Source of the DNA: a virus
Length of the DNA stretch: 64,000 bases
Virus record (IMG/VR): IMGVR_UViG_3300042305_002284
Location: 1-64,000 of that record
Strand: one strand, 5' to 3'
Below, one piece after another: positions 1,193 to 44,058 of this stretch (the first letter of the stretch is position 1; every line of letters begins with the position of its first letter). The notes under the pieces were generated by a model. It was not told the DNA's origin and made no database searches. It saw nothing but the letters and a program-made list of their open reading frames with translations. The position numbers were made by a program, and so were the translations under genes.

Positions 1193-1468
1193 TTAATCCA
1201 AAAATGCTATATGGTGTTTGTTGGTATCCCGCTCTAATGCACGCTGTTGCATATATGCTCTTATAACACTGTATATATACAGTGACACCAAAGCAACATA
1301 ACCAACAACCAATAACCATATCATATTGAGCACCCCGATACCCGGTAACACAGTATACCCGATATGCCGGCATATAACAGCGTATACTGTTGCCGGCAAA
1401 ACAAGTATAGCATTCAGTATATACAGAACAGTATGTAGCGGCCATAACACCACCGTATACCATTCCAT
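1193..1468 (-). CDS. putative small membrane protein
   Basis: 91 aa hydrophobic ORF, downstream of the minus-strand promoter at 1705-1734. Confidence 0.4.
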   Translation of the reverse strand: MEWYTVVLWPLHTVLYILNAILVLPATVYAVICRHIGYTVLPGIGVLNMIWLLVVGYVALVSLYIYSVIRAYMQQRALERDTNKHHIAFLD

Positions 1469-1704
1469 ATATAACGCCAGTATAACACACTATCACCGTG
1501 CTGTCAATGATGGTGGTTATATGGCTGTATATATATGGGCAACACCTGGTGATATATGCCATACACTATATGCCGGCAATCATGGGTCTGTTATATATAC
1601 AGTATATAAAGAATAGATAATGCCGATAATGTATACAGTATATACTGCCCGTGATGGCAGTATTTTTTTTATATATATCTCCAAAATAGTGCGCACGATC
1701 CCCC

Positions 1705-1734
1705 ATTATCGCATATCCGGGATCAGTCTGTCAA
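1705..1734 (-). promoter_or_regulatory. sigma70-type promoter
   Basis: TTGACA-18-GATAAT with TGn extension; GATC in the spacer. Confidence 0.55.
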
Positions 1735-1770
1735 GTGACTGGCATCACACCCTGCGCTGCATTTTTCCCT

Positions 1771-1812
1771 TGCAAGATCTGTGCCAACGGAGGGGCTGGC
1801 ATGGTTTATGCT
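1771..1812. promoter_or_regulatory. sigma54 dyad 1 (back-to-back -24/-12 boxes)
   Basis: minus TGGCACAGATCTTGCA (1771-1786), 10-bp spacer, plus TGGCATGGTTTATGCT (1797-1812); both GG-N10-GC. Confidence 0.85.
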
Positions 1813-1838
1813 ATATGCCGGAAGTGGTAGGGGAGATA

Positions 1839-1880
1839 TGCAATAAGTATGCCAATCTCCCGCCTGGCACGGTTTTTGCA
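1839..1880. promoter_or_regulatory. sigma54 dyad 2
   Basis: minus TGGCATACTTATTGCA, 10 bp, plus TGGCACGGTTTTTGCA. Confidence 0.88.
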
Positions 1881-1921
1881 AGACATTTATTTGTGATCTA
1901 AATCACACAACCCCACTTGAC

Positions 1922-1948
1922 AAAAGAAAAGCCACCCTTGCGGGTGGC
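1922..1948 (-). terminator. intrinsic terminator of 1975..2370
   Basis: GCCACCC-loop-GGGTGGC followed by a U-tract on the minus strand. Confidence 0.8.
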
Positions 1949-1974
1949 CATTCAGTATATTGTGAAAGCCCTGA

Positions 1975-2370
1975 TCAGGCGGTCACAACGATACGACCAT
2001 CGTGAAAGGTGACAGTAGCCGTTTCACCCTTTGCAAGACCGAGGAGAGAAACAGGAAGGCGGATAAACTCATCCATCTCGCCAACCTTCTGAACCTTATA
2101 AGCGCGGCTGTCACCGACCTTTGCAGCGGGACGCCCACGGGCACCCGGCTCGTCATCTCCGAAGATCTCGGCGCGGAGAGCCACGAGGGCCGACTGCGTT
2201 TCCGGCTGGCTTGCAAGCAGATCACAAGCACTGTCAAAGGTTGCAGCCGCAATCTCGCTTCCGGGGCTGTTGTGAAGGCGGGTCACAGCCGCGACACCCT
2301 CCGTCAATGCCAGAAAAGCGACAGTCTGAGCGGTGACGCGAACCTTGCGAGCGGGAGTAGCGTTGGTCAT
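1975..2370 (-). CDS. AT-hook + AbrB/MazE-like swapped-hairpin DNA-binding protein (paralog 1)
   Basis: start reassigned to ATG 2370 because the upstream ATG overlaps the -10 box; GARGRP then YKVQKVG...IRLPVSLLGLAKGETATVTFHDGRIVV. Confidence 0.75.
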   Translation of the reverse strand: MTNATPARKVRVTAQTVAFLALTEGVAAVTRLHNSPGSEIAAATFDSACDLLASQPETQSALVALRAEIFGDDEPGARGRPAAKVGDSRAYKVQKVGEMDEFIRLPVSLLGLAKGETATVTFHDGRIVVTA

Positions 2371-2434
2371 TGTCTCTGTCCTACAAGCGGCTTTGTCAAG
2401 TATCGGCGGTGCCGCGAACCCTTCCGATGAACCC

Positions 2435-2462
2435 ATTATAGCAGATCACATCGGCAGGTCAA
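2435..2462 (-). promoter_or_regulatory. sigma70 promoter
   Basis: TTGACC-16-TATAAT with TGn extension; CRP-type site centred near -71.5. Confidence 0.7.
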
Positions 2463-2518
2463 GCATAGCGTCTCCGCAGATCACCGATCACTATGATGGG
2501 GATCACATAGATCTGCCT

Positions 2519-2560
2519 TGCAAATAGTGTGCCAGCGGGAGCACTGGCATGGTTCTTGCA
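2519..2560. promoter_or_regulatory. sigma54 dyad 3
   Basis: minus TGGCACACTATTTGCA, 10 bp, plus TGGCATGGTTCTTGCA. Confidence 0.88.
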
Positions 2561-2587
2561 CGGTATATAATGATCGGCGATCTCATG

Positions 2588-2616
2588 TTGACAGAACAGA
2601 TCGGACAAGGTAGAAA
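2588..2616 (+). promoter_or_regulatory. sigma70 promoter, leaderless type
   Basis: TTGACA-17-TAGAAA, 6 nt, then ATG. Confidence 0.7.
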
Positions 2617-2622
2617 AAGAAT

Positions 2623-2793
2623 ATGCGATGCACTCATATGACCTGTTGGCAGTGTGAAGATGAAAAGGTTGCTAAACTGCAAAAGGAAAATGAAAGGCTG
2701 AAAACAATCATTCAAGGGCTGTTGGAAATCACACCGGATACACGACATGATGAGCCGATAGTGATTGACGCCATAGATGCACTAGATGATTGA
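2623..2793 (+). CDS. small hypothetical protein, 56 aa (below ORF-track cutoff)
   Basis: MRCTHMTCWQCEDEKVAKLQKENERLKTII...; Cys/His cluster then coiled coil; directly after a promoter. Confidence 0.65.
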   Translation: MRCTHMTCWQCEDEKVAKLQKENERLKTIIQGLLEITPDTRHDEPIVIDAIDALDD

Positions 2794-2808
2794 CGTCGGA
2801 AGCACACT

Positions 2809-2850
2809 TGCAAATAGTGTGCCAGCCGCGCCTCTGGCACAGATCTTGCA
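2809..2850. promoter_or_regulatory. sigma54 dyad 4
   Basis: minus TGGCACACTATTTGCA, 10 bp, plus TGGCACAGATCTTGCA. Confidence 0.88.
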
Positions 2851-2892
2851 TAGCAAAAACTTTGTGATGCCGGTCACACAGGGAAACTTGAC

Positions 2893-2920
2893 AAAACAAA
2901 ACCGGCCTCCGGGGCCGGTT
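2893..2920 (-). terminator. intrinsic terminator of 2944..3348
   Basis: AACCGGCC/GGCCGGTT stem with a minus-strand U-tract. Confidence 0.8.
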
Positions 2921-2943
2921 ATGCTATACACTGTATGTGTATA

Positions 2944-3348
2944 TCAGACAGTTACAACGATACGACCATCATGGAACGTGACAGTAGCCGTAGAACCCTT
3001 CGAAAGACCAAGCAGACTAACCGGGAGACGGATGAAAGGATCCATATCGTTCACTTGCTGAACCTTGTAGGAACGTGCATCGCCAACCTTTGCAGCGGGG
3101 CGACCACGCGCACCCGGTTCGTCATCGCCAAGCAGATCCGCACGGATGGCGGCAAGGGCAGACTGTGTTTCAGGCTGTGAAGCCAACAGATCAACCGCAC
3201 CGTCAAAGGTCGCTGCCGCGATCTCGTGTCCGGGCTTGTTGTGAAGCGAGGCGACGGCAGAAACACCCTCCGTCAGTGCCAGAAAGGCGACCTGCTGCGA
3301 CGTGATACGAACCTTGCGAACGGGAGCGGGAGCGTTGAGAGCCTTCAT
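2944..3348 (-). CDS. AT-hook + AbrB/MazE-like DNA-binding protein (paralog 2)
   Basis: colinear and highly similar to 1975..2370; RBS AGAGGT upstream. Confidence 0.8.
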   Translation of the reverse strand: MKALNAPAPVRKVRITSQQVAFLALTEGVSAVASLHNKPGHEIAAATFDGAVDLLASQPETQSALAAIRADLLGDDEPGARGRPAAKVGDARSYKVQQVNDMDPFIRLPVSLLGLSKGSTATVTFHDGRIVVTV

Positions 3349-3419
3349 GTGTTTACCTCTTGCAATGTCAGTCGGTTACAAGCGCCCCGTGGTGACTGAC
3401 AACCGCCCGGGACATGATC

Positions 3420-3448
3420 ACTATAGCCCGATCACACTCCCGTGTCAA
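3420..3448 (-). promoter_or_regulatory. sigma70 promoter
   Basis: TTGACA-17-TATAGT; CRP-type site 3478-3493 centred near -72. Confidence 0.8.
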
Positions 3449-3514
3449 CGGTTGCGGTGATAGCGATCGCCATGCAATGTGATCGGGCGCACAGGAAGAA
3501 AAGAAAATATCTCT

Positions 3515-3556
3515 TGCATAAAGTATGCCAGGGGGATGTTTGGCACGTTACTTGCA
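3515..3556. promoter_or_regulatory. sigma54 dyad 5
   Basis: minus TGGCATACTTTATGCA, 10 bp, plus TGGCACGTTACTTGCA. Confidence 0.88.
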
Positions 3557-3582
3557 AGGATATAACAATCTAACGACGGTGC

Positions 3583-3611
3583 TTGACAGAGATCAGATCG
3601 CCTGTTATAAC
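3583..3611 (+). promoter_or_regulatory. sigma70 promoter, leaderless type
   Basis: TTGACA-17-TATAAC, 6 nt, then ATG 3618. Confidence 0.8.
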
Positions 3612-3617
3612 AGTCCC

Positions 3618-3764
3618 ATGACGAACAAGACCGCACCTCGCAGCCTCTCCGACCTTGTCATCAACGACGACGCTTGGATCTGGCAGGATGACATGATCGT
3701 GTTTCAGGATGCCAGCGTCGACGCATACAAGGACGCATGGGCTGATGATATGAGCGACGATTGA
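3618..3764 (+). CDS. small acidic hypothetical protein, 48 aa
   Basis: MTNKTAPRSLSDLVINDDAWIWQDD...; bracketed by a promoter and a terminator. Confidence 0.65.
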   Translation: MTNKTAPRSLSDLVINDDAWIWQDDMIVFQDASVDAYKDAWADDMSDD

Positions 3765-3812
3765 TCGTTATAACATAGCCCGAAAGGGACAGCAATAGCG
3801 AACAATATATAT

Positions 3813-3840
3813 AAGCCCCGAACACAGGGGCTTCTTTTTT
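3813..3840 (+). terminator. intrinsic terminator
   Basis: AAGCCCC/GGGGCTT stem then T-tract. Confidence 0.8.
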
Positions 3841-3881
3841 GTCAATAGTGAATATGTGACAGGCATCACAAGAATGCCTAT

Positions 3882-3923
3882 TGCATAAACTATGCCAACC
3901 GGGCCGCTGGCACGGATATTGCA
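3882..3923. promoter_or_regulatory. sigma54 dyad 6
   Basis: minus TGGCATAGTTTATGCA, 10 bp, plus TGGCACGGATATTGCA. Confidence 0.88.
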
Positions 3924-3952
3924 ACCCATGCCAACCTGTTATGTGTTATGTG

Positions 3953-4270
3953 TCACAGATACTGTGCTTGACAAGCCGCACAAGCCGGCAAGTGCTGTCG
4001 CATCCGTCCCGCACTGATCTTGCGATTGCAGGGAAGCGTTACATGAACGCGATGCTTGCGACGCCCGGGAACCGGAGGGGTAATCAGTGAAATGCCGATA
4101 TTGACATTTCGAAAGTGATTGGCGCTAAACGTGTGCTCCTTATTCAGGCGCAGATTGAAGCTATTCTCATGAAGAAAAGCGTACCTGTGCCAGATCTGAA
4201 ACCCGACCATGAACCGGTCAATACGGACACGAAGGGAAGGGGTCTGTGAGGTGTTTTCGTTGTTTGTCAT
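3953..4270 (-). CDS. basic hypothetical protein
   Basis: start reassigned to ATG 4270 (MTNNENTSQ...), 6 nt after a -10 box. Confidence 0.6.
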   Translation of the reverse strand: MTNNENTSQTPSLRVRIDRFMVGFQIWHRYAFLHENSFNLRLNKEHTFSANHFRNVNIGISLITPPVPGRRKHRVHVTLPCNRKISAGRMRQHLPACAACQAQYL

Positions 4271-4276
4271 GGGATC

Positions 4277-4305
4277 ACTATATCCACAGATCACTAATGG
4301 CGCAA
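4277..4305 (-). promoter_or_regulatory. sigma70 promoter, leaderless, CRP class I geometry
   Basis: TTGCGC-17-TATAGT; TGTGA-N6-ACACA centred 61.5 bp from the ATG. Confidence 0.75.
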
Positions 4306-4358
4306 GCATGGATCACTTGCCGATGTGATCGGGAACACAAGAGAGAAAAAATATCTAT

Positions 4359-4400
4359 TGCATAAACCGTGCCAACCGGGCCGCTGGCATAGATATTGCA
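4359..4400. promoter_or_regulatory. sigma54 dyad 7
   Basis: minus TGGCACGGTTTATGCA, 10 bp (same spacer as dyad 6), plus TGGCATAGATATTGCA. Confidence 0.88.
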
Positions 4401-4441
4401 AGGGATTAATCTGTGACATACCTCACACTATAACACTTGAC

Positions 4442-4470
4442 AAAAGAAAACCCCGCCGATGATGGCGGGG
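4442..4470 (-). terminator. intrinsic terminator of 4489..4737
   Basis: CCCCGCC/GGCGGGG stem with a minus-strand U-tract. Confidence 0.8.
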
Positions 4471-4488
4471 CAGGAAAAGAATATATAT

Positions 4489-4737
4489 TCAGTCCCGGAC
4501 AGAACGCATATTGCGCACACACTGCACAGTGAGACGGCTCACATACACACGATAATCGGCATCGGCGTTGTGATCATTGTCACTGTCAATAGCAGCGCGG
4601 ATCTCCTGCCGCTCACTGTAACGAACGGAACGGCGGGTAGCAATCTTCACATGCCGCTTCCATGCACTACCGGGGCCAACACAGTTACGGCACAGACATT
4701 CACGAGCGATGTTTCCAGCGAGGTGTCGGGTGTTCAT
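4489..4737 (-). CDS. Arg-rich hypothetical protein with CxCxxC
   Basis: start reassigned to ATG 4737, 6 nt after a -10 box. Confidence 0.6.
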   Translation of the reverse strand: MNTRHLAGNIARECLCRNCVGPGSAWKRHVKIATRRSVRYSERQEIRAAIDSDNDHNADADYRVYVSRLTVQCVRNMRSVRD

Positions 4738-4743
4738 GGGTTC

Positions 4744-4772
4744 ACTATAATGGGAGATCACTAACAATGCAA
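4744..4772 (-). promoter_or_regulatory. sigma70 promoter, leaderless, CRP class I geometry
   Basis: TTGCAT-17-TATAGT; site 4791-4806 centred at -61.5. Confidence 0.75.
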
Positions 4773-4817
4773 GCACAGATCACTGATCACTATGACGGAG
4801 ATCACACACAGTGCTAT

Positions 4818-4859
4818 TGCATAAAGTGTGCCAGCGGAAGCCTTGGCATGATACTTGCA
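4818..4859. promoter_or_regulatory. sigma54 dyad 8
   Basis: minus TGGCACACTTTATGCA, 10 bp, plus TGGCATGATACTTGCA. Confidence 0.88.
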
Positions 4860-4905
4860 AGTGTATAACGCTGTGACCTGCATCACTGGCTGCATTGATC
4901 TGTGC

Positions 4906-4934
4906 TTGCATGATCTGATCGGGAGAGGTATAAA
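4906..4934 (+). promoter_or_regulatory. sigma70 promoter, leaderless, CRP class I geometry
   Basis: TTGCAT-17-TATAAA, 6 nt, ATG 4941; site 4872-4887 centred at -61.5. Confidence 0.75.
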
Positions 4935-4940
4935 AAAAGA

Positions 4941-5102
4941 ATGAACGAACAAGACAAGGTCATGAACGGCTTTTATAACCTTGCAATCATGCAAGCAATC
5001 CACAACCTTGGAAACGCTTATCTGTATGATGCGGTGGCGTTGGAAGACCTTAGAATGTTTGTCGATGCCCTTGAACAGTATGGCGAAGCGGGTGAAGCAT
5101 GA
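4941..5102 (+). CDS. small hypothetical protein, 53 aa (below ORF-track cutoff)
   Basis: MNEQDKVMNGFYNLAIMQAIH...; ATGA overlap with the next gene. Confidence 0.65.
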   Translation: MNEQDKVMNGFYNLAIMQAIHNLGNAYLYDAVALEDLRMFVDALEQYGEAGEA

Positions 5103-5317
5103 AAGATAATCTCCAGGATCTTGCAAAGATTGTTACACTGAGCGACGGAGAAACGTGGGACGTAGCTAGCAACACTGTAACTGTAAAGTTTCTAACATGG
5201 GAAGGTGAAGGAGCTTTGTTTGACGGTGGAAGGATTGACACAGTAGAACCAGAACACATTGTTACTGAAGTGTCACTAAAAGATCTTATCCGATGTTGGC
5301 TTGGCCGCGATACTTGA
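5099..5317 (+). CDS. hypothetical protein
   Basis: 72 aa, translationally coupled by ATGA overlap. Confidence 0.65.
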   Translation: MKDNLQDLAKIVTLSDGETWDVASNTVTVKFLTWEGEGALFDGGRIDTVEPEHIVTEVSLKDLIRCWLGRDT

Positions 5318-5346
5318 TCGCTGTATAACAAACACAAAGGAACATC

Positions 5347-5427
5347 ATGGAAACCTTTATCACTGCTGCTAACTTCTCTGTGTTACTTTCTTATATCGCT
5401 TGCATTGTAACCGCTTTCACTGTATAG
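5347..5427 (+). CDS. 26-aa hydrophobic peptide
   Basis: AAGGAA RBS; METFITAANFSVLLSYIACIVTAFTV. Confidence 0.4.
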   Translation: METFITAANFSVLLSYIACIVTAFTV

Positions 5428-5666
5428 TGTAGCCTATACTGACCCCTCCCTGTCGGAATGTATGTCCCTATGGGAGGGGGGTGGTGCCAGTGGGACCTTA
5501 GGTCCCCCGTGACACGCGGGAAAAATTTGTTAACTTCAGACTTTACGCACTGCGTTACAAACAGTAGCAATATAAAGCACACATTTTTCGAAAAATATAA
5601 AAAAGTTCTAAAAGTGTGGTGGGCAAAAAATTCCCCAAAAAATTTTGTCAGACTTTTGCTTTTTAT

Positions 5667-5709
5667 CTATTTATATAAGTCTCTATTTATATAAGTCTAT
5701 TGGTATAAG
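5667..5709 (+). promoter_or_regulatory. tandem CTATTTATATAAGT, putative phage late promoter
   Basis: two exact copies plus one degenerate copy upstream of ATG 5721; motif recurs before other genes. Confidence 0.55.
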
Positions 5710-5720
5710 AAGCAAAACAA

Positions 5721-7169
5721 ATGATAAAAGTAAAAATAAACAACAAGACATTACAAGAGGCACGAACAATACCAGTAAGCAGATATCTTGTTGAACAGTT
5801 GTCTGTGCTCTATAAAAAGGCATTCCTAAAACTTGTTGATGTATATATAGAGGACGAAATTGCCGGCGCTGATCGCGCCGGGAAAAAATTTTTCACAGAA
5901 CTCCGCAATAAAATTGAAGAAAAATACCCAGAAGCAAAAAGTGGTTCAATACCAATAGATAAAAACTTCCTATATGATTTATTGGCAAAAATGAATCGAC
6001 CAAACCGGTATGACAGGCACAAACAAATAAGTGAAATACCGATTGATACACTATTACAAATAATAAAAAACGATCCCGCTGATCCACTAAAACAGTTCTT
6101 GCGCGGGAAGATGGATACACGAACAGCAATCAATAGAATAAAAAAATATTTCCAGGAACGAGATATAGATAGTTTATCTATTGGCGTAGAGTTACAGAAA
6201 ACAGCGCAAGCCAATAATCACAACCTAACAGCAGAGCCCGGAGATGAAATTGAAACATACGCCGGTCTATACTTTGCAGAGAGTGGAACAATTGCCGTAA
6301 CCTTTGAAGCAGGTTTCTTTACAGGAACGATTATAACCGACGACAGTGGCCGGAGAAACAGAATATCGCCAAGACTTAGTCCAGCAGCCGGAAAGCGCCC
6401 AGAAACGATTATAGGCTATTTGGAAGATGAGTTGCGCGAACTCTCTGTATCTGTTCGCCATGAACTTCAACACTTTTATCAAAGTTTATTTTCAAAAGTA
6501 TTTGGTGTTGCTGATTTCAGGGCAGGTCTTCCGCCAAGACAGGTTATAAAGCGCCATCTCTCCGGAGATACACGCGATCCACATTTTTCTGATCCCATTG
6601 AAATGCAAACCGATATTCAAGATGAAGTTGATAAATTTACAACTGGTCTTGATGCACTAATGAACCAATATGGCGATCAACTTGCCGATAAACCAGAACA
6701 AATAAAAAATATAAAAAAAATAATGGTAAAAATATTTACTGGTTCTACACTCAACGATGCAGAACGAGATATAGAAAAAACTTATAAACTATACAGATAT
6801 GTTCAACCAAGCGAAACATTGCGAGATATAAAGTCTGTTGATAAGAGTGGAGAACTATATAGATATGCACTCCGAGTATTGAATAACTCTGTTGCCGATA
6901 TTTTCGGGGAATGTTTGGACGTAAGCAATATTATGAAATTAGATAATAAAAATAAAATAACTGTTTTGTTATCTGAAAACTCAACCCTTGTTGAGAATAT
7001 GTCAAAAGATGAAATCCGCAAACTTGTTCGTGATGAACTTGAAAAGTTGCTGCGAGATAAAGAAACCAAAAAAGAAATTGCCGATATTACCAAGAAAATG
7101 CTGAAAAAACTATACCGTGAACTTTCATTCAATAGCACACACATTGTTGATCAACTTGATATAAGTTGA
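5721..7169 (+). CDS. hypothetical protein with HExxH zinc-peptidase-like motif
   Basis: 482 aa, VRHELQH. Confidence 0.75.
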   Translation: MIKVKINNKTLQEARTIPVSRYLVEQLSVLYKKAFLKLVDVYIEDEIAGADRAGKKFFTELRNKIEEKYPEAKSGSIPIDKNFLYDLLAKMNRPNRYDRHKQISEIPIDTLLQIIKNDPADPLKQFLRGKMDTRTAINRIKKYFQERDIDSLSIGVELQKTAQANNHNLTAEPGDEIETYAGLYFAESGTIAVTFEAGFFTGTIITDDSGRRNRISPRLSPAAGKRPETIIGYLEDELRELSVSVRHELQHFYQSLFSKVFGVADFRAGLPPRQVIKRHLSGDTRDPHFSDPIEMQTDIQDEVDKFTTGLDALMNQYGDQLADKPEQIKNIKKIMVKIFTGSTLNDAERDIEKTYKLYRYVQPSETLRDIKSVDKSGELYRYALRVLNNSVADIFGECLDVSNIMKLDNKNKITVLLSENSTLVENMSKDEIRKLVRDELEKLLRDKETKKEIADITKKMLKKLYRELSFNSTHIVDQLDIS

Positions 7170-7606: not shown

Positions 7607-8107
7607 ATGAATAAACGGAGTTTTATAACAATGAGAAAAAATCGCGATCCTTATCAAATGGGAAATGCAATAGAATATAACGAAGAGCCAGAATTGGCAG
7701 ATGCTATGCATTTTGATAAAAAACAACATGCACCTGGAAATCGCGAGGGTGGCTTCCGCGCCGGAACAATAGATAACGTGGCAGAAGGTGAGGATTCAGC
7801 TAGTTCAGTTCAAAATAGTGAAAAAGAACAAATCGATGCCATGCTTGAAGATTATAAAAATAAAATAAAAACTGCTGTTTCGGCTCGTCTTCTTGGTAAG
7901 CCGACAAAACTAAAAATGTCTGGCAATAAAAAACTTATCGGTCAGATTGTAAAACTTATAAAAATGGAAACAGATTACCTGAACAGCATTATGTCTGGTC
8001 AGGGTGCTGACGCCCCGATACTCATCAAGATGAAAGCAGAAATAGATCAGGAAGCAAACATGCTTGATAGAATGCTTGGAACCACTGATTTTTGGCCTTT
8101 CAAATAG
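7607..8107 (+). CDS. hypothetical protein
   Basis: 166 aa ORF. Confidence 0.75.
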   Translation: MNKRSFITMRKNRDPYQMGNAIEYNEEPELADAMHFDKKQHAPGNREGGFRAGTIDNVAEGEDSASSVQNSEKEQIDAMLEDYKNKIKTAVSARLLGKPTKLKMSGNKKLIGQIVKLIKMETDYLNSIMSGQGADAPILIKMKAEIDQEANMLDRMLGTTDFWPFK

Positions 8108-8116
8108 GAATACAGC

Positions 8117-8407
8117 ATGAAAAACGATAATAAAATTCTAATGGAAATGATAGAACAAGAACTATCAAATACTTCTGAACAGTCAAGAGTTGAAAAACAC
8201 GATCATGAAGGCAAAATGGCCAAGGGAGAACTTCGTGATATGATAAAAAATGCTATATCCTTATATAAAAAATTAGACGACAACGACGAGCTTCCTGGCT
8301 GGATTTCTTCATATATTTCTCTTGCCACCGATTATATTCATACTGTTTCTCAATACATGGCAGAAGACGATCAGTTGGCAAACAGAGAAGAAGAGACAGA
8401 TTTTTGA
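8117..8407 (+). CDS. conserved phage hypothetical protein
   Basis: DHEGKMAK...ELPGW...A.DYI..V..Y pattern seen in large T4-like phages. Confidence 0.75.
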   Translation: MKNDNKILMEMIEQELSNTSEQSRVEKHDHEGKMAKGELRDMIKNAISLYKKLDDNDELPGWISSYISLATDYIHTVSQYMAEDDQLANREEETDF

Positions 8408-8426
8408 ACAACATTTGCATCAGGAC

Positions 8427-8455
8427 TTGACATCGGAACGATTCGCAGGTAGGTT
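8427..8455 (+). promoter_or_regulatory. sigma70-type promoter
   Basis: TTGACA-17-TAGGTT. Confidence 0.55.
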
Positions 8456-8473
8456 TGATTTGTGAGGCTATAA

Positions 8474-31725: not shown

Positions 31726-32991
31726 ATGAGTAAAAAAATAAAAATATTAACTATAAGTGACCATATTTTGAGTCCCTCTGGTGTCGCTAATCAAACTCGC
31801 TATATTGTAGATTCAATGCTGAAAACTGGCAAATACCAGTTTATTTGTATTGGTGGAGCAGTAAAACACCAAGATTATAGACCACAAAAAACCCAAGAGT
31901 GGGGCGACGATCTAATAATATTACCTGTTGATGGCTATGGAACGCAAGATATTATAAGACAAGTTCTAAAACAACAAAAACCAGACATTCTTTGGTTTAT
32001 GACTGATCCAAGATTTTATACTTGGCTATGGGAAATAGAAGATGAAATAAGATGCAATGTTCCAATGGTTTATTATCATGTATGGGACAACTATCCTTAT
32101 CCAACATTCAATAATGCTTACTATCAATCAAATGATGTTATAGCAACAATATCAAAAGTAACAGACGACATTGTCAGAACAGTAAGTCCGGAAGTAGAAA
32201 CTCACTATATTCCTCACTGTGTAGATATGAATATATTTTGTAAAGTTCCAGAACAAAGTGTGATTGATTTTACAAAAAGAGTTTTTCCAAAAGATCTAAA
32301 TAAAAAATTTACAGTATTCTGGAATAGCCGAAATGCTCGTAGAAAAAACCCTGGCTCAATTGTATGGTGGTTTGCAGATTTTCTAAAACATGTTCCTGCT
32401 GGTTCTGCTCGTCTGCTAATGCATACAGATCCAAAAGATGTTCATGGGCCAGATCTTGAAGCGATAATAAACGAACTTGGTTTGACTAATGGTGAAGTCA
32501 TGTTTTCGCCAGCAAGAATAGGACCGCAAGATATTGCTATGATGTATAACCTTGCCGATGTAACTGTTAGTTTGAGCGATGCAGAGGGTTTTGGTCTTTC
32601 AACAATGGAAAGTCTTGCTTGCGAAACTCCAATCATTGTTCCAAGAACTGGCGGTCTACAAGAACAAGTAAAAGACAGTGATGGAAACCATTTTGGTATT
32701 GAGCTTCCAATAACGTCACAAATGATCGTTGGCTCTCAAGAAGTTCCATTTATTTATGAAGATCGTGTAAACAAAGAAGACTTTGTAAATGCTCTGCTAA
32801 AAATGTACAATATGAGCGATACAGAAAGAAAAGCACTTGGTGCAGCAGGAAGAGAACATCTAAATAAAAATTATGATATGGCAACACTTATGAACAAATG
32901 GGATGAACTCTTTACAAAAATACACAATGAGCGCGGTTCGTGGGAAAATAGAAAAGGTTACAGTCGTTGGACTCTAAAGGAGATAGCATGA
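31726..32991 (+). CDS. glycosyltransferase GT4
   Basis: RN..RK, AEGFGL...ESLACETP. Confidence 0.9.
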   Translation: MSKKIKILTISDHILSPSGVANQTRYIVDSMLKTGKYQFICIGGAVKHQDYRPQKTQEWGDDLIILPVDGYGTQDIIRQVLKQQKPDILWFMTDPRFYTWLWEIEDEIRCNVPMVYYHVWDNYPYPTFNNAYYQSNDVIATISKVTDDIVRTVSPEVETHYIPHCVDMNIFCKVPEQSVIDFTKRVFPKDLNKKFTVFWNSRNARRKNPGSIVWWFADFLKHVPAGSARLLMHTDPKDVHGPDLEAIINELGLTNGEVMFSPARIGPQDIAMMYNLADVTVSLSDAEGFGLSTMESLACETPIIVPRTGGLQEQVKDSDGNHFGIELPITSQMIVGSQEVPFIYEDRVNKEDFVNALLKMYNMSDTERKALGAAGREHLNKNYDMATLMNKWDELFTKIHNERGSWENRKGYSRWTLKEIA

Positions 32992-34256
32992 GAAAAAAAG
33001 TTATAGTTAGAGGTCCGGCCATGAGTATGTCTGGTTATGGCGAACAAACAAGGTTTGCTTTACGTTCCATGAGAGAACATGAAGATAAGTTTGATATATT
33101 TTTAGAAAATATTCCATGGGGAAGAACTGGATGGATAGCAGAAGAATCAGAAGAAACTCAATGGATTCAAATGCTCATGGCAAAAACCCATCATTATGCT
33201 CAACAACAGGGTCAGTTTGATATAAGTCTCCAAATAACTATTCCAAATGAGTTCGCAAAAATGGCTCCTGTAAATATTGGATATACAGCAGGCATAGAAA
33301 CAACAAAAGTCTCTCCACAGTGGATTGAAAAAGCAAAAATCATGGACAAAATAATTGTTGTTTCTAATCATTCAAAGCAAGTATTTGACAATACAGAATA
33401 CAAACTACAGAATCCACAAACCGGACAAATAATAGGCTTCCGAAACACGACTCCGGTAGAGGTAGTTCATTTCCCAGTAAAAATGGGAGAAAAAACAGAA
33501 ATAAATCTTGATCTAAAAACCGATTTCAACTTTCTTTCTGTCGCTCAATGGGGACCAAGGAAAAATGTTGAAGCAACGCTCGTATCGTTTCTAAGAGAGT
33601 TTGCAAACGATTCCGATCTTGGTCTTGTTCTAAAGTTGAATGTTGCAAAAAACTGCATTGCCGATAGACTGGTTTGTGAAAAAAGAATAAATAGCATTAT
33701 TAAAAATAATCCAAAAGCAAAATGTAAAGTTTATCTACTTCACGGCAATATGACAGATGCAGAAATGAGAAGTCTTTATGCTCATCCAAAAATAAAAGCG
33801 TTTGTATCAACAACTCATGGTGAAGGTTTTGGTCTTCCATTTTTTGAAGCTGCTGCAGCAGGATTGCCAGTTATTGCTCCAAAGTGGAGTGGTCACGTTG
33901 ATTTCCTTCTTGCTCCAATAAAAGAAGATGGCAAGGTACGAATGAGAAACCATTTTACAACTGTTGATTTTGATCTTGGGAATGTAAATAAAGAAGCAGT
34001 ATGGGACGGAGTTATTCAAGCAGATAGCCAGTGGTGCTTTGTAAAAGAACACAGTGTTATGGACGCTATGAGAAAAGTTCAAAAAAATCACGGTGCTGCT
34101 CTCGCTCAAGCAAGAAAATTGAAAGAGTACGTATTGGAAGAATTTGCTGAATATAAACAGATAGAAAAAGTGATTAATATTTTTAAAGATTATGTTAAAT
34201 CTGATGAAATAATGGATAATTGGCTTGCTTCAATCAATCAAGTGACTACATTATGA
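32988..34256 (+). CDS. glycosyltransferase GT4
   Basis: SGYG, RKN, HGEGFGLP..EA...GLPVI. Confidence 0.9.
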   Translation: MRKKVIVRGPAMSMSGYGEQTRFALRSMREHEDKFDIFLENIPWGRTGWIAEESEETQWIQMLMAKTHHYAQQQGQFDISLQITIPNEFAKMAPVNIGYTAGIETTKVSPQWIEKAKIMDKIIVVSNHSKQVFDNTEYKLQNPQTGQIIGFRNTTPVEVVHFPVKMGEKTEINLDLKTDFNFLSVAQWGPRKNVEATLVSFLREFANDSDLGLVLKLNVAKNCIADRLVCEKRINSIIKNNPKAKCKVYLLHGNMTDAEMRSLYAHPKIKAFVSTTHGEGFGLPFFEAAAAGLPVIAPKWSGHVDFLLAPIKEDGKVRMRNHFTTVDFDLGNVNKEAVWDGVIQADSQWCFVKEHSVMDAMRKVQKNHGAALAQARKLKEYVLEEFAEYKQIEKVINIFKDYVKSDEIMDNWLASINQVTTL

Positions 34257-35092
34257 AAAAATTAATTTTTATTGCTGACTATTTTGAAGATGAGATAATT
34301 GGCGGCGGCGAAAAATGTAATTCAGAAATAATTCAAAAATTGTCTAGCACTTTTGAAACAAAAGCAATCAAATCTTCACATATCAATTTAGAATTTTTAA
34401 AAAATAATAAAAATTCAACTTATATTATTGGAAATTTTCTTCTTTTATCTTTTGAATGTAAAGAATATCTACAAAATAATTGTAGATATTTTATTTATGA
34501 ACATGATCATAAATATTTAAAAAGTAGAAATCCTGCTTTATATAGAGATTATTTAATTCCAAAACAAGAGTTAATTAATTTAGATTTTTTTAAAAATGCA
34601 AAATTAATAATATGTCAAACAAATTTTCACGCAAACATTGTCAAAAAAAATTTAGAATTTGATAATATAGTATCTGCGTCGACTAATTTTTGGTCTAAAG
34701 AAGAAAAAAACATATTATTAAAATATTCTAAAACACAAAAAAAGAATATTGCTTTTATACTTGATACAAATATAGAACATAAAAATGCACTTGGTTCAAT
34801 AGAATATTGCAATAAAAATAACTTAAAATATTTTACTTTTCAAGATTTTAATTTTGAAAACTTTATTAAGAATATTAGTAAAGCTGATAAATTTATATTT
34901 TTTCCAAAAACCCCTGAAACATTTGGAAGAGTTGCAACTGAATGTAAAATACTTGGAATGAAAATACATACAAATGGTCTTTTAGGAGTTTCTCACGAAA
35001 ATTGGTTTAAAGAACTAAATGGAATTGAATTATTAAATTATATTGAAGAGTCAAATGATAAATTTTTATATTTCCTCAAGGAAAATTTATGA
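34253..35092 (+). CDS. GT-B fold glycosyltransferase-like
   Basis: GGGE, PETFGRV..E...LG. Confidence 0.7.
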   Translation: MKKLIFIADYFEDEIIGGGEKCNSEIIQKLSSTFETKAIKSSHINLEFLKNNKNSTYIIGNFLLLSFECKEYLQNNCRYFIYEHDHKYLKSRNPALYRDYLIPKQELINLDFFKNAKLIICQTNFHANIVKKNLEFDNIVSASTNFWSKEEKNILLKYSKTQKKNIAFILDTNIEHKNALGSIEYCNKNNLKYFTFQDFNFENFIKNISKADKFIFFPKTPETFGRVATECKILGMKIHTNGLLGVSHENWFKELNGIELLNYIEESNDKFLYFLKENL

Positions 35093-35832
35093 ACAAAAAT
35101 ATAACTGTTATTTTGAATATGTATAGGCGTCCTCAAAATATGAATATGCAAATAGCCTCTGTCAGACAACAAACTATAAAGCCAAATGAAGTATGGATTT
35201 GGAAAAATCACCATGACGACAATAAATCTGTTGATTTAAATACTTTTGACGTAGATAGAAGATTTAATAATGATTTTAACTGGAAATTTTATGGTAGATT
35301 CGCCGGAGCCATGTTGGCCCAGACAGAATACGTAGCAATATTTGATGACGATACTATCCCTGGAAATAAGTGGTTTGAAAATTGTTTGGATACGATATCA
35401 AAAGTAAATGGAATATTAGGAACAGCAGGGGTTATATTGAATTCTAATATGTATGTTGATCACGAGAGATGTGGTTGGCCATCACAAAATGAACAAATAA
35501 CTAGAGTTGATTTAGTTGGACATGCATGGTTTTTTAGAAAAGATTGGTTAAAATATCTTTGGATGGAAAAACCAGCTACATGGGAAAATGGAGAGGATAT
35601 ACATTTTTCATATCTTGCTCAAAAATATGGCAATATTGAAACATATTGTCCACCGCATCCAAAATCTGATAAGATGTTTCACGGATCTTTATTAGGAATG
35701 AAGCTTGGAACTGATTCTGTTGCTACCAGCAATAATATAACAATGTCTCATAAACAGTTTTTCTCTGAAAGAGATTTGTGTGTACAAAATGCAATTAATG
35801 GTGGATGGAAAACAGTAAGGAATATCAAATGA
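35089..35832 (+). CDS. glycosyltransferase GT-A/GT2-like
   Basis: N-terminal GT2 strand, DDD, GED motifs. Confidence 0.8.
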   Translation: MNKNITVILNMYRRPQNMNMQIASVRQQTIKPNEVWIWKNHHDDNKSVDLNTFDVDRRFNNDFNWKFYGRFAGAMLAQTEYVAIFDDDTIPGNKWFENCLDTISKVNGILGTAGVILNSNMYVDHERCGWPSQNEQITRVDLVGHAWFFRKDWLKYLWMEKPATWENGEDIHFSYLAQKYGNIETYCPPHPKSDKMFHGSLLGMKLGTDSVATSNNITMSHKQFFSERDLCVQNAINGGWKTVRNIK

Positions 35833-36830
35833 TTTTAATTTGTTTCGGAACAAGACCAGAATATATTAAAATAAAACCAATATTGCAAGAATTTAATAAA
35901 AATAAATTTAATAATTACAAGATTCTTTTCACTGGTCAACATCAAGACTTAATATCTTTAAACAATCTAGATGTTGATTATAAATTAGAAATCCAATCTG
36001 GTTCAAATAGATTAGATTCTATATTTTGTTCATTGTTGAATAATGAAAGTATATTTGAAAAAATAACTCACGTTTTAGTGCAAGGAGATACTGCTTCCGC
36101 AGCTGCATTAGCCTTGGCAGCATTTCATAGAAATATTAAAGTAATTCATCTTGAAGCCGGATTGAGAACACACGATATCAACAATCCATATCCAGAAGAA
36201 TTTTACAGAAGAATGATATCAAATATGTCTTCTATAAATTTTTGTGTATCAGATATTAATAGAGCTTGGCTAGAACAAGAAAAATGCCCAGGTATCAATC
36301 ATGTAGTGGGAAATACTGTTTTAGATAATTTAAAAAATATTCCAACATTTTATGAAAATAAAATACTCATAACTTTACATAGAAGAGAAAATCACGATAT
36401 AATGGATAAATGGTTTGTTGAATTTGAAAAATTAGCCAATCAATATCTTGATCATGAATTTTTTTTACCGATTCATCCAAATCCAAATGTTTTAAAACAT
36501 GCTCATCTGTTAAAAAAAATTCAAGTAATAGAACCACTACCTCACGTGGACCTAATCAACTATATGAGTAGATGTAAGCTGTTAATAACTGACAGTGGAG
36601 GCTTACAAGAAGAATCATCTTTCTTAAAAAAGAAATCAATAGTTTGTAGAAAGGCGACAGAAAGAGTGGAAGGGCTAAATACTTTTAGCTTCTTATGTAA
36701 AGAACCTAATGAATTAGAAGAACTATTTTCAGAACTATTAACAAGTTACAAAATTGATGATATATGTCCATACGGTAACGGAAATTCTTCAGAAGTAATA
36801 TATGATATTATCAAACAGTACATTTACTGA
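35829..36830 (+). CDS. wecB: UDP-N-acetylglucosamine 2-epimerase
   Basis: GTRPE.IK, TGQH, VQGDT, HLEAGLR, HRREN, TDSGGLQEE. Confidence 0.95.
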   Translation: MILICFGTRPEYIKIKPILQEFNKNKFNNYKILFTGQHQDLISLNNLDVDYKLEIQSGSNRLDSIFCSLLNNESIFEKITHVLVQGDTASAAALALAAFHRNIKVIHLEAGLRTHDINNPYPEEFYRRMISNMSSINFCVSDINRAWLEQEKCPGINHVVGNTVLDNLKNIPTFYENKILITLHRRENHDIMDKWFVEFEKLANQYLDHEFFLPIHPNPNVLKHAHLLKKIQVIEPLPHVDLINYMSRCKLLITDSGGLQEESSFLKKKSIVCRKATERVEGLNTFSFLCKEPNELEELFSELLTSYKIDDICPYGNGNSSEVIYDIIKQYIY

Positions 36831-37524
36831 GCATTTTTCTTTCTTTAAAAATAAAATTCTAAATAAAGAAAATTTTGCTTTTGCAAGATATGCAGATGGA
36901 GAAAAAATAATATTAGAAAATAATATTATATCTTTTAATACACAAGCATATGTTGTTGATAAGTGGACTTATAATAATAATAAAATTTTTTCAAAAGATT
37001 TAATGCAAACTTGTTATCACAAAGAAGATAACTATTATTATGCTATATCTTGTAAATGTTGTGATGAAAATGGTTCAAATTATTATAAAAAATTATTAGA
37101 AAACCATAATATAACTTATTCTAATTTATTTATAAATGCAAATTACAATAAATTTATAGAATTTATTAATAAATTAGACAGAGATGTTGTTGTTTTGGCT
37201 AATAAAAATTGTTTACAATCAAATTATCCTTTTAATGTAATACAAAAAATACCTATAGAAAATGACTGCGTAAATTGGTATGAATCTAACAAAACAACAA
37301 TTATAAAAGGAATGAGTTTGTTAGCAAATAAATATAAAAATACTTTATTTTTTATTAGTGCCGGACCACTTTCAGAAATTTTGATTCATAACTTGTTTAT
37401 AGTAAATCCTGATAATACCTATATTGACATTGGTTCGGCATTAGATATATATACTCACAATAAAATAACAAGACCATATCAAAATAAAAATAGTGAATAT
37501 TCAACAAAAGAATGTGTTTTATGA
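36802..37524 (+). CDS. GT-D fold-like glycosyltransferase
   Basis: ARYADGE...SAGP...IDIGS. Confidence 0.65.
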   Translation: MILSNSTFTEHFSFFKNKILNKENFAFARYADGEKIILENNIISFNTQAYVVDKWTYNNNKIFSKDLMQTCYHKEDNYYYAISCKCCDENGSNYYKKLLENHNITYSNLFINANYNKFIEFINKLDRDVVVLANKNCLQSNYPFNVIQKIPIENDCVNWYESNKTTIIKGMSLLANKYKNTLFFISAGPLSEILIHNLFIVNPDNTYIDIGSALDIYTHNKITRPYQNKNSEYSTKECVL

Positions 37525-38396
37525 TTACTTTTATAAATTTAGGAAAATATGGTCGGCTTGGTAATCAGTTATATCAGTATGCAGCATTAAAAAGTTGTTC
37601 TTTAAAAAATAAATATATTTGTAAAATACCGGATATATCGAATACGTATTGGCACGGTCAGAAATGTTTATTAAATAATTTTCAATTAACTTCTGAACTT
37701 TTAACACAAGAAGACATAAGTTCAATAAGACATGAAATTAGTGAACCTATTGGATTTACAGGAGAATATTTAAATATTTTAGAAAATATAAAAGATAACA
37801 CAAATATTAATGGTTTTTTTCAAAATACAAAATATTTTTTAGAATATGAAAAAGAAATTAAAAATGAATTTAATTTTAAAGAAGATTTATTAAGAAAAGA
37901 AATAGATTTTATTAATAATTTAAAAGAAGATAAATATGATTTAGTTTCTTTGCATATAAGAACCGGTGATATGACAGACGGAACAAATTCAATTTATAAC
38001 AAATATTATGGGAAACATCCTTTGGATAAGAATAGTGTTTTTGGAAATTATATTAATAATGCACTAGAATATTTTTCAGAATTAAAAAATATTAAAATAT
38101 TAGTTTTTGTTGGTGGTAGTAGAACAGGAGATGATTCTAGCGATATACGCATGGCAAAAAATTATTTTAATGATTCTAAATTTATTGTAAATGATTCAAA
38201 TGAACCTATGACTGATTTTATTCGAATAAGCTTATGTAATCATAATATAATAAGTTTTAGTTCTACTTTTTCTTGGTGGGCAGCATTTTTAAATAAAAAT
38301 ATAAACAAAACAGTAATATGTCCAAAAAATTTTCATATTGAAAAAAATACTTCTTGTAATAACTATTTTTATCCAAAAGAATGGATACAGATTTAA
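37512..38396 (+). CDS. alpha-1,2-fucosyltransferase-like GT11
   Basis: GRLGNQ, GFFQ, HIR.GD, STFSWWAA. Confidence 0.9.
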   Translation: MCFMITFINLGKYGRLGNQLYQYAALKSCSLKNKYICKIPDISNTYWHGQKCLLNNFQLTSELLTQEDISSIRHEISEPIGFTGEYLNILENIKDNTNINGFFQNTKYFLEYEKEIKNEFNFKEDLLRKEIDFINNLKEDKYDLVSLHIRTGDMTDGTNSIYNKYYGKHPLDKNSVFGNYINNALEYFSELKNIKILVFVGGSRTGDDSSDIRMAKNYFNDSKFIVNDSNEPMTDFIRISLCNHNIISFSSTFSWWAAFLNKNINKTVICPKNFHIEKNTSCNNYFYPKEWIQI

Positions 38397-39193
38397 AGGA
38401 ATTTAAAATGAAAGATAATAAAAATATAGAAGATGTAAAATCATATTGGAATAATAGACCATGTAACATAAGACATTCTTTTAAACAAATTGGTACAAAA
38501 GAATATTTTGATGAAGTAGAAAAAAAGAAATTTTTTGTTGAACCTCATATTATAACTTTTAGCGAATTCCAAAATTGGAACAATAAAAACGTTTTAGAAA
38601 TCGGATGTGGTATAGGTACTGCTGCCATAAATTTTGCTAGAAATGGAGCAAATTATACCGGTATAGAATTATCTGAAAAATCTTTAAATTTAACAAAAAA
38701 AAGATTTGAAGTATATTTTCAAAAGGGACAATTTTATTGTGGAAATGCAGAAAGTTTATCTTCTTTTTTACCACAATCGAAATATGATTTAATTTATTCT
38801 TTTGGAGTTATACATCACAGTCCAAATCCTGAAAAAATTATAAAAGAAATAAAAAACTACATGCATAAAGATTCTATATTAAAAATAATGTTATATTCTA
38901 AAAATTCTTGGAAAAACATAATGATTAATGGAGGGTTTGACCAGCCAGAAGCCCAATCTGGATGTCCAATTGCAATTACATATACAAAACAAGAAGTAAA
39001 AGAATTATTAAATGGTTTTGATATATTAGAAATAAAAAAAGATCATATTTTTTCTTATGATTTAGAAAGTTATAAAAATAATTTATATAAAAAACTTCCT
39101 TGGTTTGAAAGTATGTCAAAACAGCAATTTGAACATTTAGAAAAAAATCTTGGTTGGCATCTTTTAATAACTGCTAAATTAGGAGTTGATTAA
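38381..39193 (+). CDS. class I SAM-dependent methyltransferase
   Basis: VLEIGCGIG, YSFGVIHH. Confidence 0.88.
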   Translation: MDTDLKEFKMKDNKNIEDVKSYWNNRPCNIRHSFKQIGTKEYFDEVEKKKFFVEPHIITFSEFQNWNNKNVLEIGCGIGTAAINFARNGANYTGIELSEKSLNLTKKRFEVYFQKGQFYCGNAESLSSFLPQSKYDLIYSFGVIHHSPNPEKIIKEIKNYMHKDSILKIMLYSKNSWKNIMINGGFDQPEAQSGCPIAITYTKQEVKELLNGFDILEIKKDHIFSYDLESYKNNLYKKLPWFESMSKQQFEHLEKNLGWHLLITAKLGVD

Positions 39194-40269: not shown

Positions 40270-40273
40270 TAAT

Positions 40274-43672: not shown

Positions 43673-44058
43673 TACTATTGATAATGTTATTGTTATTTTT
43701 TATTACTTCTACCATTTTGCTTGGTTGGTATTGTTATAAACTTACAAACAAACTTCTTTTTGTTTCCGAAAACATGGACGATCTATACGAAAGACTTGAA
43801 GAGTTTGACGAGCACATAAACTTTATTCATGAACTTGAAATGTATTATGGAGATGAAACTCTAAAAAATCTCATTCGTCATTCGCGCGATTTAAGAAACT
43901 ATATGTCAAAATACAAAGATATTATTGAGCTTGCTGGCGAAGAGGAAAATGATGACACAACAGAACAAGACAGCGAAACCGAAACAGAGGATAACAAGGA
44001 GGAGCAAGAAAAGTTCGTCTCCCCAGCAGGAAAAACAGTATTTTACCAAGGAACATGA
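43669..44058 (+). CDS. membrane-anchored coiled-coil protein
   Basis: N-terminal TM, acidic tail. Confidence 0.65.
   Translation: MILLIMLLLFFITSTILLGWYCYKLTNKLLFVSENMDDLYERLEEFDEHINFIHELEMYYGDETLKNLIRHSRDLRNYMSKYKDIIELAGEEENDDTTEQDSETETEDNKEEQEKFVSPAGKTVFYQGT

Follow-up and report, generated by a model that had tools for sequence, protein, structure and literature searches.

Symmetric pairs of sigma-54-like promoter elements at the boundaries of a small-gene cassette array in a lake-water phage family

The stretch of DNA analysed here (the window) comprises the first 64,000 nucleotides of the 124,360-bp IMG/VR virus record IMGVR_UViG_3300042305_002284, with a CheckV completeness of 62%. The record represents a large, uncultured phage from lake water, with a backbone of about 0.33 GC, seven tRNA genes and nearly all long open reading frames (ORFs) on one strand. 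PHROG matches to a baseplate wedge, a tail fibre, an endolysin and PhoH identify it as a tailed phage of the myovirus type. Its closest cultured relatives are only distantly related, their baseplate protein being about 29% identical (a Microcystis phage and Flavobacterium phages). Within this AT-rich genome, positions ~1200-5600 form a GC-rich island (~4.4 kb, ~50% GC; 0.41-0.62 in 300-bp windows) that contains cassettes of small genes together with eight copies of a short symmetric element. In each copy, here termed a dyad, two boxes that resemble the -24/-12 promoter elements of sigma-54 (RpoN) stand back to back. Neither a megablast search with positions 1500-6500 nor a tblastn search with the F3 protein, encoded twice in the island, gave a match among 50,697 phage records.

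All eight 42-bp dyads listed in the original prediction, which had been made from the letters of the stretch alone, are present (Table 1). Every pair consists of a minus-strand box, exactly 10 bp that are mostly G+C, and a plus-strand box, and the GG-N10-GC spacing within TGGCA...TGC is exact in 16 of 16 halves. The pattern TGGCAY-N6-TGCW has 17 matches in the window, compared with a mean of 0.51 and a maximum of 3 in 100 dinucleotide-preserving shuffles; 16 of them are the halves of the eight pairs, in agreement with the claim that all halves are sigma-54-like with exact spacing, and the 17th is a lone match at 62509. Extending the box and dyad scan to the whole record yielded 24 occurrences of TGGCA-N7-TGCW, 16 of them within dyads, and nine places with TGCCA-N10-TGGCA, namely the eight dyads and position 120069, the latter lacking -12 elements. 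Dyads of the 10-bp form with both elements are confined to the island, and no box comparable to the dyad boxes was found elsewhere in the 124-kb record. The core is constant among the dyad copies and the inner bases differ.

Chance and assembly artefact are ruled out as origins of the array by the shuffles, by independent contigs with the same island and backbone genes, and by identical pieces assembled elsewhere. Part of the stretch is contained in 24 public runs, among which our reliance is limited to X3, X4, X5 and X6. In contigs of further lake-water runs, a 2834-nt piece (X3) is identical over dyads 1-6 and a 1984-nt piece (X4) over dyads 5-8, each with zero differing letters. The contigs from further runs carry no joints or variants and have no bearing on rearrangement within the population. 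A known RNA family was also rejected for the dyads, as only tRNAs are present in the window at the Rfam gathering threshold.

Related loci were gathered with the second F3 copy (P0002) and an alignment of 14 family members, giving 2 loci from IMG/VR, 21 from metagenomes and 2 short contigs binned in metagenome-assembled genomes (MAGs). Several of these loci represent repeated assemblies of one and the same phage, and the distinct dyads number 96. The scan of relatives revealed back-to-back pairs in 23 of 23 loci (L007-L029), 143 pairs altogether, with up to 14 dyads in one locus (L022). The window and six loci have an inner gap of 10 bp, 16 loci have one of 26 bp (27 bp in three pairs) and a single locus has one of 16 bp; the 10-bp and 26-bp forms never occur together in one locus. 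Among the distinct dyads, 47 have a gap of exactly 10 bp and 49 of exactly 26 bp, gaps of 9, 16 and 27 bp being rare. The 26-bp gap surrounds a conserved central palindrome. Given one spacing class per locus and a gap that differs between loci, the halves are kept while the centre can change. In relatives with flanking sequence, the island is likewise GC-rich (0.51-0.63 in L007, against 0.27-0.37 outside) and has the same backbone genes on either side as in the window; thus it is a stable part of the phage family and not a chimera. Contigs of relatives often end at the island or comprise the island alone (L008, L033 and many short metagenome contigs), breaks that probably stem from repeats, strain-level cassette variation and the GC shift. 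A separate scan of IMG/VR for the exact 10-bp dyad, from which records near the window were possibly omitted, returned two loci, L005 and L006. The former was rejected as a chance match inside a gene, devoid of sigma-54-type boxes.

For a consensus, 224 distinct boxes were pooled from the window and 25 related loci by a search that fixed GG, A and GC only, so that GG-N10-GC is present in all of them by construction. The search left other positions free or constrained them only loosely, and among these the pooled boxes show Y (-27), T (-26), C (-23), Y (-21), R (-20), T (-14) and A/T (-11). Along the motif the frequencies are 100% for the Y that precedes the box, 99% T, 100% C, 100% Y, 99% R, then, past the spacer, 70% T, 100% T, and 83% A with 17% T. 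The spacer is rich in T, and seven spacer positions carry 0.4-1 bit. The -24/-12 consensus of sigma-54 reads Y-TGGCAC-G/R ... T-TGC-A/T. The positions conserved across the 224 boxes are those of this consensus only. The consensus positions are kept in 224 distinct boxes with varying spacers, which bears out the earlier view of a selected binding motif as opposed to recent duplicates; judged by this pattern of conservation, the box elements are under purifying selection.

We further compared the two arms of each dyad. At seven variable positions, the arms of the 96 distinct dyads are no more alike than shuffled partners; at one position of the 10-bp class, for example, they match at 0.06, against 0.36 expected. 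A hairpin or cruciform was rejected on these grounds. Since the arms do not co-vary, the dyad is neither a hairpin nor a site for a symmetric dimer, but two separate copies of a bipartite motif. Left and right boxes, once brought into a common orientation, differ slightly but consistently in their spacers, and the dyads are thus polar along the array. By their match to the consensus, the boxes are most probably read by the sigma-54 holoenzyme, and each dyad is, at the level of its sequence, a divergent pair of near-consensus sigma-54 promoter elements.

The gene contexts claimed for the dyads were all recovered: divergent genes flank dyads 3, 5 and 8, convergent gene ends flank dyads 4 and 6, and dyads 1 and 2 face each other across a gene-free gap (Table 1). 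Dyad 7, which the original prediction had left unclassified, separates a gene start from the 3' end of the following gene on the same strand. A promoter and terminator scan showed that every small gene of the island has its own sigma-70-type promoter, as had also been predicted, three of them matching at 11 of 12 positions, and that most have an intrinsic terminator. For the genes 3618-3764(+) and 4489-4737(-), the ATG as read from the sequence lies 7 nt past the -10 hexamer, so that both are leaderless. Beyond each of the four terminators the order is the same: T-run, palindrome of the form TGTGA-N6-TCACA, dyad. All four perfect copies of this palindrome in the 124-kb record fall within the island. 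In the same scan, sigma-70-like promoters overlap three boxes (2544-2571, 3540-3569 and 4375-4348).

Table 1. Dyads, genes and transcription signals of the GC-rich island (positions in the window)
Feature	Position	Strand	Description
Dyad 1	1771..1812		Leftward box 1771-1786 and rightward box 1797-1812 around a GC-rich centre of 10 bp; outer one of the two dyads in the terminal double dyad
Dyad 2	1839..1880		26 bp from dyad 1, no gene between; leftward box converges with rightward box of dyad 1
Dyad 3	2519..2560		Between divergent genes 1975-2370(-) and 2623-2793(+)
Dyad 4	2809..2850		Between convergent 3' ends of 2623-2793(+) and 2944-3348(-)
Dyad 5	3515..3556		Between divergent genes 2944-3348(-) and 3618-3764(+)
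Dyad 6	3882..3923		Between convergent 3' ends of 3618-3764(+) and 3953-4270(-)
Dyad 7	4359..4400		Between start of 3953-4270(-) and 3' end of 4489-4737(-)
Dyad 8	4818..4859		Between divergent genes 4489-4737(-) and 4941-5102(+)
F3 protein, copy 1 (P0001)	1975..2436	-	Likely start 2370, downstream of promoter; paralogue of 2944-3348; invariant RGRPAAK motif
F3 protein, copy 2 (P0002, 134 aa)	2944..3348	-	Paralogue of P0001
Small gene, 56 aa	2623..2793	+	Between dyads 3 and 4; absent from L009, L010, L011
Small acidic protein, family F4	3618..3764	+	Shared DDxWxWxDDM motif; listed ORF starts within dyad 5, at 3525
Basic Cys/His-containing protein, family F8	3953..4309	-	Likely start 4270
Basic Cys-containing protein, family F5	4489..4776	-	Likely start 4737; cassette inverted relative to L009, L010, L011
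Two small genes, families F14 and F10	4941..5317	+	Island edge, adjoining dyad 8
Sigma-70-type promoter	3420..3448	-	11 of 12 positions; serves 2944-3348(-)
Further sigma-70-type promoters	2435-2462 and 1705-1734	-	Promoter scan
Intrinsic terminator of first F3 gene	1930..1949	-
Equivalent terminators	2900-2920(-), 3813-3833(+), 4450-4471(-)
Perfect TGTGA-N6-TCACA palindrome	1892..1907		Centre 40 bp from centre of dyad 2; between dyad 2 and terminator of 1975-2370(-)
Further perfect TGTGA-N6-TCACA copies	2863-2878, 3855-3870, 4412-4427

In cassette maps of 12 loci, nearly every gap between cassettes holds one dyad, and the array ends in a double dyad, that is, two pairs 25-27 bp apart. Rearrangements were judged against three close relatives, L009, L010 and L011, with ~72-86% nucleotide identity over the aligned segments. 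Positions 4359-4806 align in the opposite direction to their flanks in all three, and this inverted segment extends from the first base of dyad 7 to 12 bp before dyad 8; the two dyads are thus the left and right joints of a cassette inversion. The F8 gene is also oriented opposite to its homologues in these relatives. Moreover, the 248 bp that separate dyad 3 from dyad 4 (2561-2808), which hold the 56-aa gene, correspond to only 25 bp between dyads in the same three loci, and three cassette families occur in two copies in L011. Judged from these alignments, the dyads are joints of cassette inversion, of insertion or deletion, and of duplication. No tyrosine integrase (PF00589) or serine resolvase (PF00239) was found in the 124-kb record and an 83-kb record of a related phage (G000 and G001), and the 10-bp centres vary between dyads within one genome, leaving no shared crossover core. 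Taken together, these two results favour general recombination between repeated modules, as has been proposed for the promoter-early stem-loops (PeSLs) of T4-type phages (PMC2839356).

The orientation of 198 boxes from 11 loci was called on the basis of ORF families, which in the relatives were defined by all-against-all BLAST. It turned out that 69 boxes face a gene in the sense direction, 63 face antisense and 23 converge upon each other, with 43 left unassigned. Over the 12 specified positions of the consensus, the mean match is 10.96 for sense (n=69), 10.65 for antisense (n=63) and 10.0 for convergent boxes (n=23). A perfect TGTGA-N6-TCACA palindrome within 45 bp downstream accompanies 20 of the 63 antisense-facing boxes, as against 7 of the 69 sense-facing ones. 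In the 10-bp class, the dyad centre and these sites are separated by a fixed distance, either 40-41 or 48-50 bp. Such a palindrome, which resembles sites of the CRP type, would lie at about +9 relative to the closer promoter, and a protein bound there would obstruct it.

Taken as a whole, the comparisons of sequence indicate that the dyads are boundary modules of self-contained small-gene cassettes, in an island at one fixed genome position of a lake phage family. The sigma-54 polymerase binds its promoters and then stays silent until an ATP-driven activator acts. Our tentative preference is a model in which the dyads may provide any neighbour that faces them with an enhancer-dependent promoter, the backward box being gated by the adjacent palindrome. 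Hints that the boxes are used as promoters come from the slightly better consensus match of the sense-facing boxes and from the excess of palindromes just downstream of the antisense-facing ones. According to this model, the host sigma-54 RNA polymerase would bind the boxes and remain silent until the activator arrives, and the enhancer-dependent promoter would add to each cassette's own sigma-70 promoter. Because the module is symmetric, a neighbouring cassette would still get such a promoter upstream whether inserted or flipped either way. A box that faces a 3' end would then be the price of symmetry, and a CRP-family protein on the palindrome at the start site of that box would probably restrain it. 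[quoted passage not shown]

Several points weigh against this model. The box search, by fixing GG, A and GC, misses degenerate copies, and conservation may therefore be overstated. The gradient from sense over antisense to convergent boxes is small, with 43 of the 198 boxes unassigned, and antisense-facing boxes make up 63 of the 132 with a called direction. Moreover, the 23 convergent boxes are opposed over a distance of 25-27 bp and are near consensus even though firing would be senseless there. The original prediction had named, as a case that would refute it, boxes that each drive an adjacent gene; with half of the assigned boxes facing no gene start, such simple driving is not the whole story. 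In addition, the exact spacing of 10 or 26 bp is not needed by two independent promoters, and several cassette genes lack both a leader and a Shine-Dalgarno motif, so that a longer sigma-54 transcript might be translated poorly. No RNA run was found among the public runs containing the stretch. With respect to the activator, neither an activator domain (PF00158, PF14532) nor a sigma-54 DNA-binding domain (PF04552) was detected in three phage records (G000, G001 and G002) that are 62%, 46% and 22% complete, and no conserved upstream activator site was recognised. By gene order, the 83-kb record reaches ~67 kb beyond the island on the side absent from the window's record; provided that the phages are collinear, the 124-kb and 83-kb records would jointly cover ~190 kb of an estimated 180-200 kb. 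The activator could be encoded by the host.

A second reading is that the pairs never fire. In such a non-productive arrangement, which we regard as unlikely, each dyad would hold one or two host sigma-54 holoenzymes as closed complexes, and occupancy itself would be the output, either in a boundary nucleoprotein complex with the palindrome-binding protein or in competition with nearby sigma-70 promoters. The boxes are close to the consensus whatever they face, the inner spacing is rigid in both classes of distinct dyads, the three phage records yielded no activator gene, and palindromes at fixed distances lie directly downstream of boxes, three of which are overlapped by sigma-70-like promoters. 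In E. coli, moreover, the holoenzyme bound at most sigma-54 sites is transcriptionally inactive, and repression by sigma-54 can occur where its site overlaps another promoter (PMC4591121). The same source also cuts the other way, since intragenic holoenzyme did not lower the expression of the genes in which it sits and the authors consider roadblock repression effectively ruled out (PMC4591121), which likewise weakens the roadblock insulation offered in the original prediction. Furthermore, the gaps of the two classes differ by 16 bp (~1.5 helical turns), so that no single two-polymerase geometry is conserved, and sense-facing boxes are slightly nearer to the consensus. A broader version, in which the dyads would be a DNA-encoded trap or boundary whose never-firing paired sites park host sigma-54 RNA polymerase at cassette borders, possibly with a CRP-family protein, is likewise unlikely. 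Were it true, early genes would become freely invertible, exchangeable units, or the host sigma-54 pool would be drained, and the silent closed complex would serve as a structural or regulatory part, a use not known to be described for any virus.

A sponge, by which the replicating array would titrate sigma-54 and its bound core polymerase away from the host sigma-54 regulon, appears improbable. T-rich spacers favour stable sigma-54 binding, and many rightward boxes have them. The genome carries 16 near-consensus sites here and up to 28 in the locus with 14 dyads, and a replicating phage could thus outnumber a total like that of E. coli, for which 135 mapped sites and an estimate of at least 250 have been reported (PMC4591121). 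However, a sponge needs no pairing, no exact spacing, no pair at each cassette boundary and no palindromes at fixed distances, and its benefit to the phage is not evident. Both the sponge and the DNA scaffold of the original prediction found no direct support, and neither explains the rigid geometry of the pairs or the layout of one pair per boundary. We assign similarly little weight to a coincidental likeness to sigma-54, with the boxes used instead by a phage protein, for example a small DNA-binding protein of the island, or by a recombination system. Cassettes are indeed inverted, inserted and duplicated at the dyads; a single spacing class per genome would be expected from co-evolution with a trans-acting factor or from concerted evolution; the conserved central palindrome of the 26-bp class must be read by some other protein; conserved island proteins carry basic or RGRP motifs; and the left/right asymmetry is uniform along the array. 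On the other hand, the match to the bipartite consensus reaches beyond the core, and its two sub-elements differ, unlike the half-sites of a symmetric dimer. The arms show no co-variation, the 10-bp centres differ within a genome, which is unfavourable for site-specific crossover, and the 124-kb and 83-kb records gave no tyrosine integrase or serine resolvase. The original interpretation is supported in part, and it contained neither the role of the dyads as joints nor the GC-rich island nor the 26-bp variant.

Concerning the genes of the island, the proteins match no Pfam family, and their PHROG matches are at E 0.03 or weaker only. For the F3 protein P0002, 208 relatives were retrieved from metagenomes at E <= 0.001, and many of them are 70-96% identical. 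Both F3 paralogues (130-150 aa) share an invariant, AT-hook-like G-x-RGRPAAK motif followed by FIRLPVSLLG. The F3 model has a mean pLDDT of 69.6, with a confident N-terminal helical half and a poor C-terminal half; it gave no Foldseek match at E <= 0.001, and the sequence gave no match in the PDB below E = 0.49. If F3 binds AT-rich DNA, it might, speculatively, counter host silencing of such DNA. Unrelated cassette proteins of the window and of L007-L030 start alike, with M-x-N-N/T-T/K-R/K, and a shared 5' cassette module thus seems to reach into the first codons.

Some further signals were observed in and around the cassettes. At the three overlaps with sigma-70-like promoters, TTGGCA or CTGGCA, that is, the -24 element with the preceding T or C, doubles as a -35-like hexamer, with a -10-like hexamer 16-18 bp on, and there the sigma-70 polymerase might compete with the sigma-54 polymerase for a single stretch of DNA (2544-2571, 3540-3569 and 4348-4375). 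The promoter-side flanks of the cassettes (2437-2518, 3400-3514, 4260-4358 and 4740-4817) are crowded with GATCAC/GTGATC motifs, each holding GATC; some lie inside sigma-70 promoter spacers. This crowding points to an operator or to control that is sensitive to methylation. Positions 1479-1700, which adjoin the terminal double dyad where the island ends, contain dense short repeats of the TATA/GTATAC type, as does L007 at the equivalent place (8200-8460). The promoter 1705-1734(-) transcribes into this stretch, which could represent iterons, an origin or a structured leader. In L007, a unit of ~200 nt (7640-7860) combines a near-consensus sigma-70 promoter with an intrinsic terminator, has no convincing ORF and is a candidate small RNA, its only Rfam match being sub-threshold (E = 0.51).

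Elsewhere in the window, positions 31726-42883 encode a sugar-modification block composed of two GT4 glycosyltransferases, a UDP-GlcNAc 2-epimerase, a GT11 transferase, a UDP-glucose/GDP-mannose dehydrogenase and an NAD-dependent epimerase; part of this block has only 0.21-0.27 GC, well under the backbone. The gene 43925-44701(+) shows a weak match to sigma-70 region 2 at 44240-44338 (E = 0.011, below the cut-off) and is a candidate late sigma factor. As for the host, Shine-Dalgarno motifs precede 37 of the 73 long ORFs of the whole 124-kb record, and together with the sigma-70-type promoters and intrinsic terminators they merely fit a proteobacterium-like host. A search of genome collections found only the two short MAG-binned contigs, and one MAG has rpoN; we did not count this as host evidence.

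If this widespread lake phage family builds a silent sigma-54 complex into a rigid, symmetric module at each border of its early-gene cassettes, it would provide a natural system for studying structural and regulatory uses of silent polymerase. The module would further allow one to ask by what means exchangeable phage genes are shielded from dependence on adjacent genes, and the combination of CRP-type sites with sigma-54 would raise the question of how early expression is coupled to the nutritional state of the host. The finding also extends the known use of regulatory repeats as shuffling joints, which now takes in sigma-54 signals beside those of sigma-70, and inversion beside insertion and deletion. 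At 42 or 58 bp, the module is short and can be tested directly in laboratory bacteria.

Among known systems, integron attC sites and shufflon sfx repeats are imperfect inverted repeats that border cassettes gained, lost or inverted. The dyads share with them the imperfect inverted repeat at cassette borders, but no integrase or invertase gene was found, each cassette has its own promoter, and the repeat is a polymerase-binding motif with a variable centre. Our literature searches for phage sigma-54 arrays, which left supplementary tables aside, returned no paper describing such arrays. The earlier statement that no described phage element like this was known calls for qualification, as sigma-54-dependent transcription in YuA (PMC10914365) and the PeSLs (PMC2839356) are both published. 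With sigma-54 promoters, including that of YuA, the dyad boxes have in common the bipartite GG-N10-GC with its extended consensus, an intergenic position and, for half of the assigned boxes, a place upstream of a gene in the sense direction, and YuA is the published precedent for a phage that uses host sigma-54 polymerase (PMC10914365). In contrast to such promoters, dyad boxes always come as back-to-back pairs with a fixed gap of 10 or 26 bp, one pair per cassette boundary. For half of the assigned boxes the direction is towards a 3' end, and some boxes oppose one another over 25-27 bp; neither an activator gene nor an upstream activator site was found, and the genes already have sigma-70 promoters. 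The inactive or intragenic sigma-54 sites of E. coli are likewise near consensus, conserved, not gene-driving and presumably bound by silent holoenzyme; those sites, however, are single, scattered inside genes and of no measurable effect, whereas the dyads are intergenic, paired and arrayed at cassette boundaries (PMC4591121).

A close parallel is provided by the PeSL repeats, which mediate cassette shuffling in the hyperplastic regions of T4-type phages (PMC2839356, PMC4122927). Both elements are short conserved intergenic repeats with transcription signals that flank small non-essential genes of myoviruses, and both coincide with the joints at which related phages differ by insertion, deletion or replacement. 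Whereas a PeSL combines a sigma-70 promoter with a terminator stem-loop, the core of the dyad is a symmetric sigma-54-like pair with the sigma-70 promoter and the terminator beside it. The symmetry of the dyad also accompanies cassette inversion, and the whole array forms a GC-rich island in an AT-rich genome. In the model we tentatively prefer, the dyad would be the sigma-54 counterpart of the PeSL promoter/terminator repeats that bound shuffled genes in T4-type phages. The safest statement is the structural one: to judge from their sequences, symmetric sigma-54 promoter pairs serve as PeSL-like boundary repeats of a shuffling cassette array.

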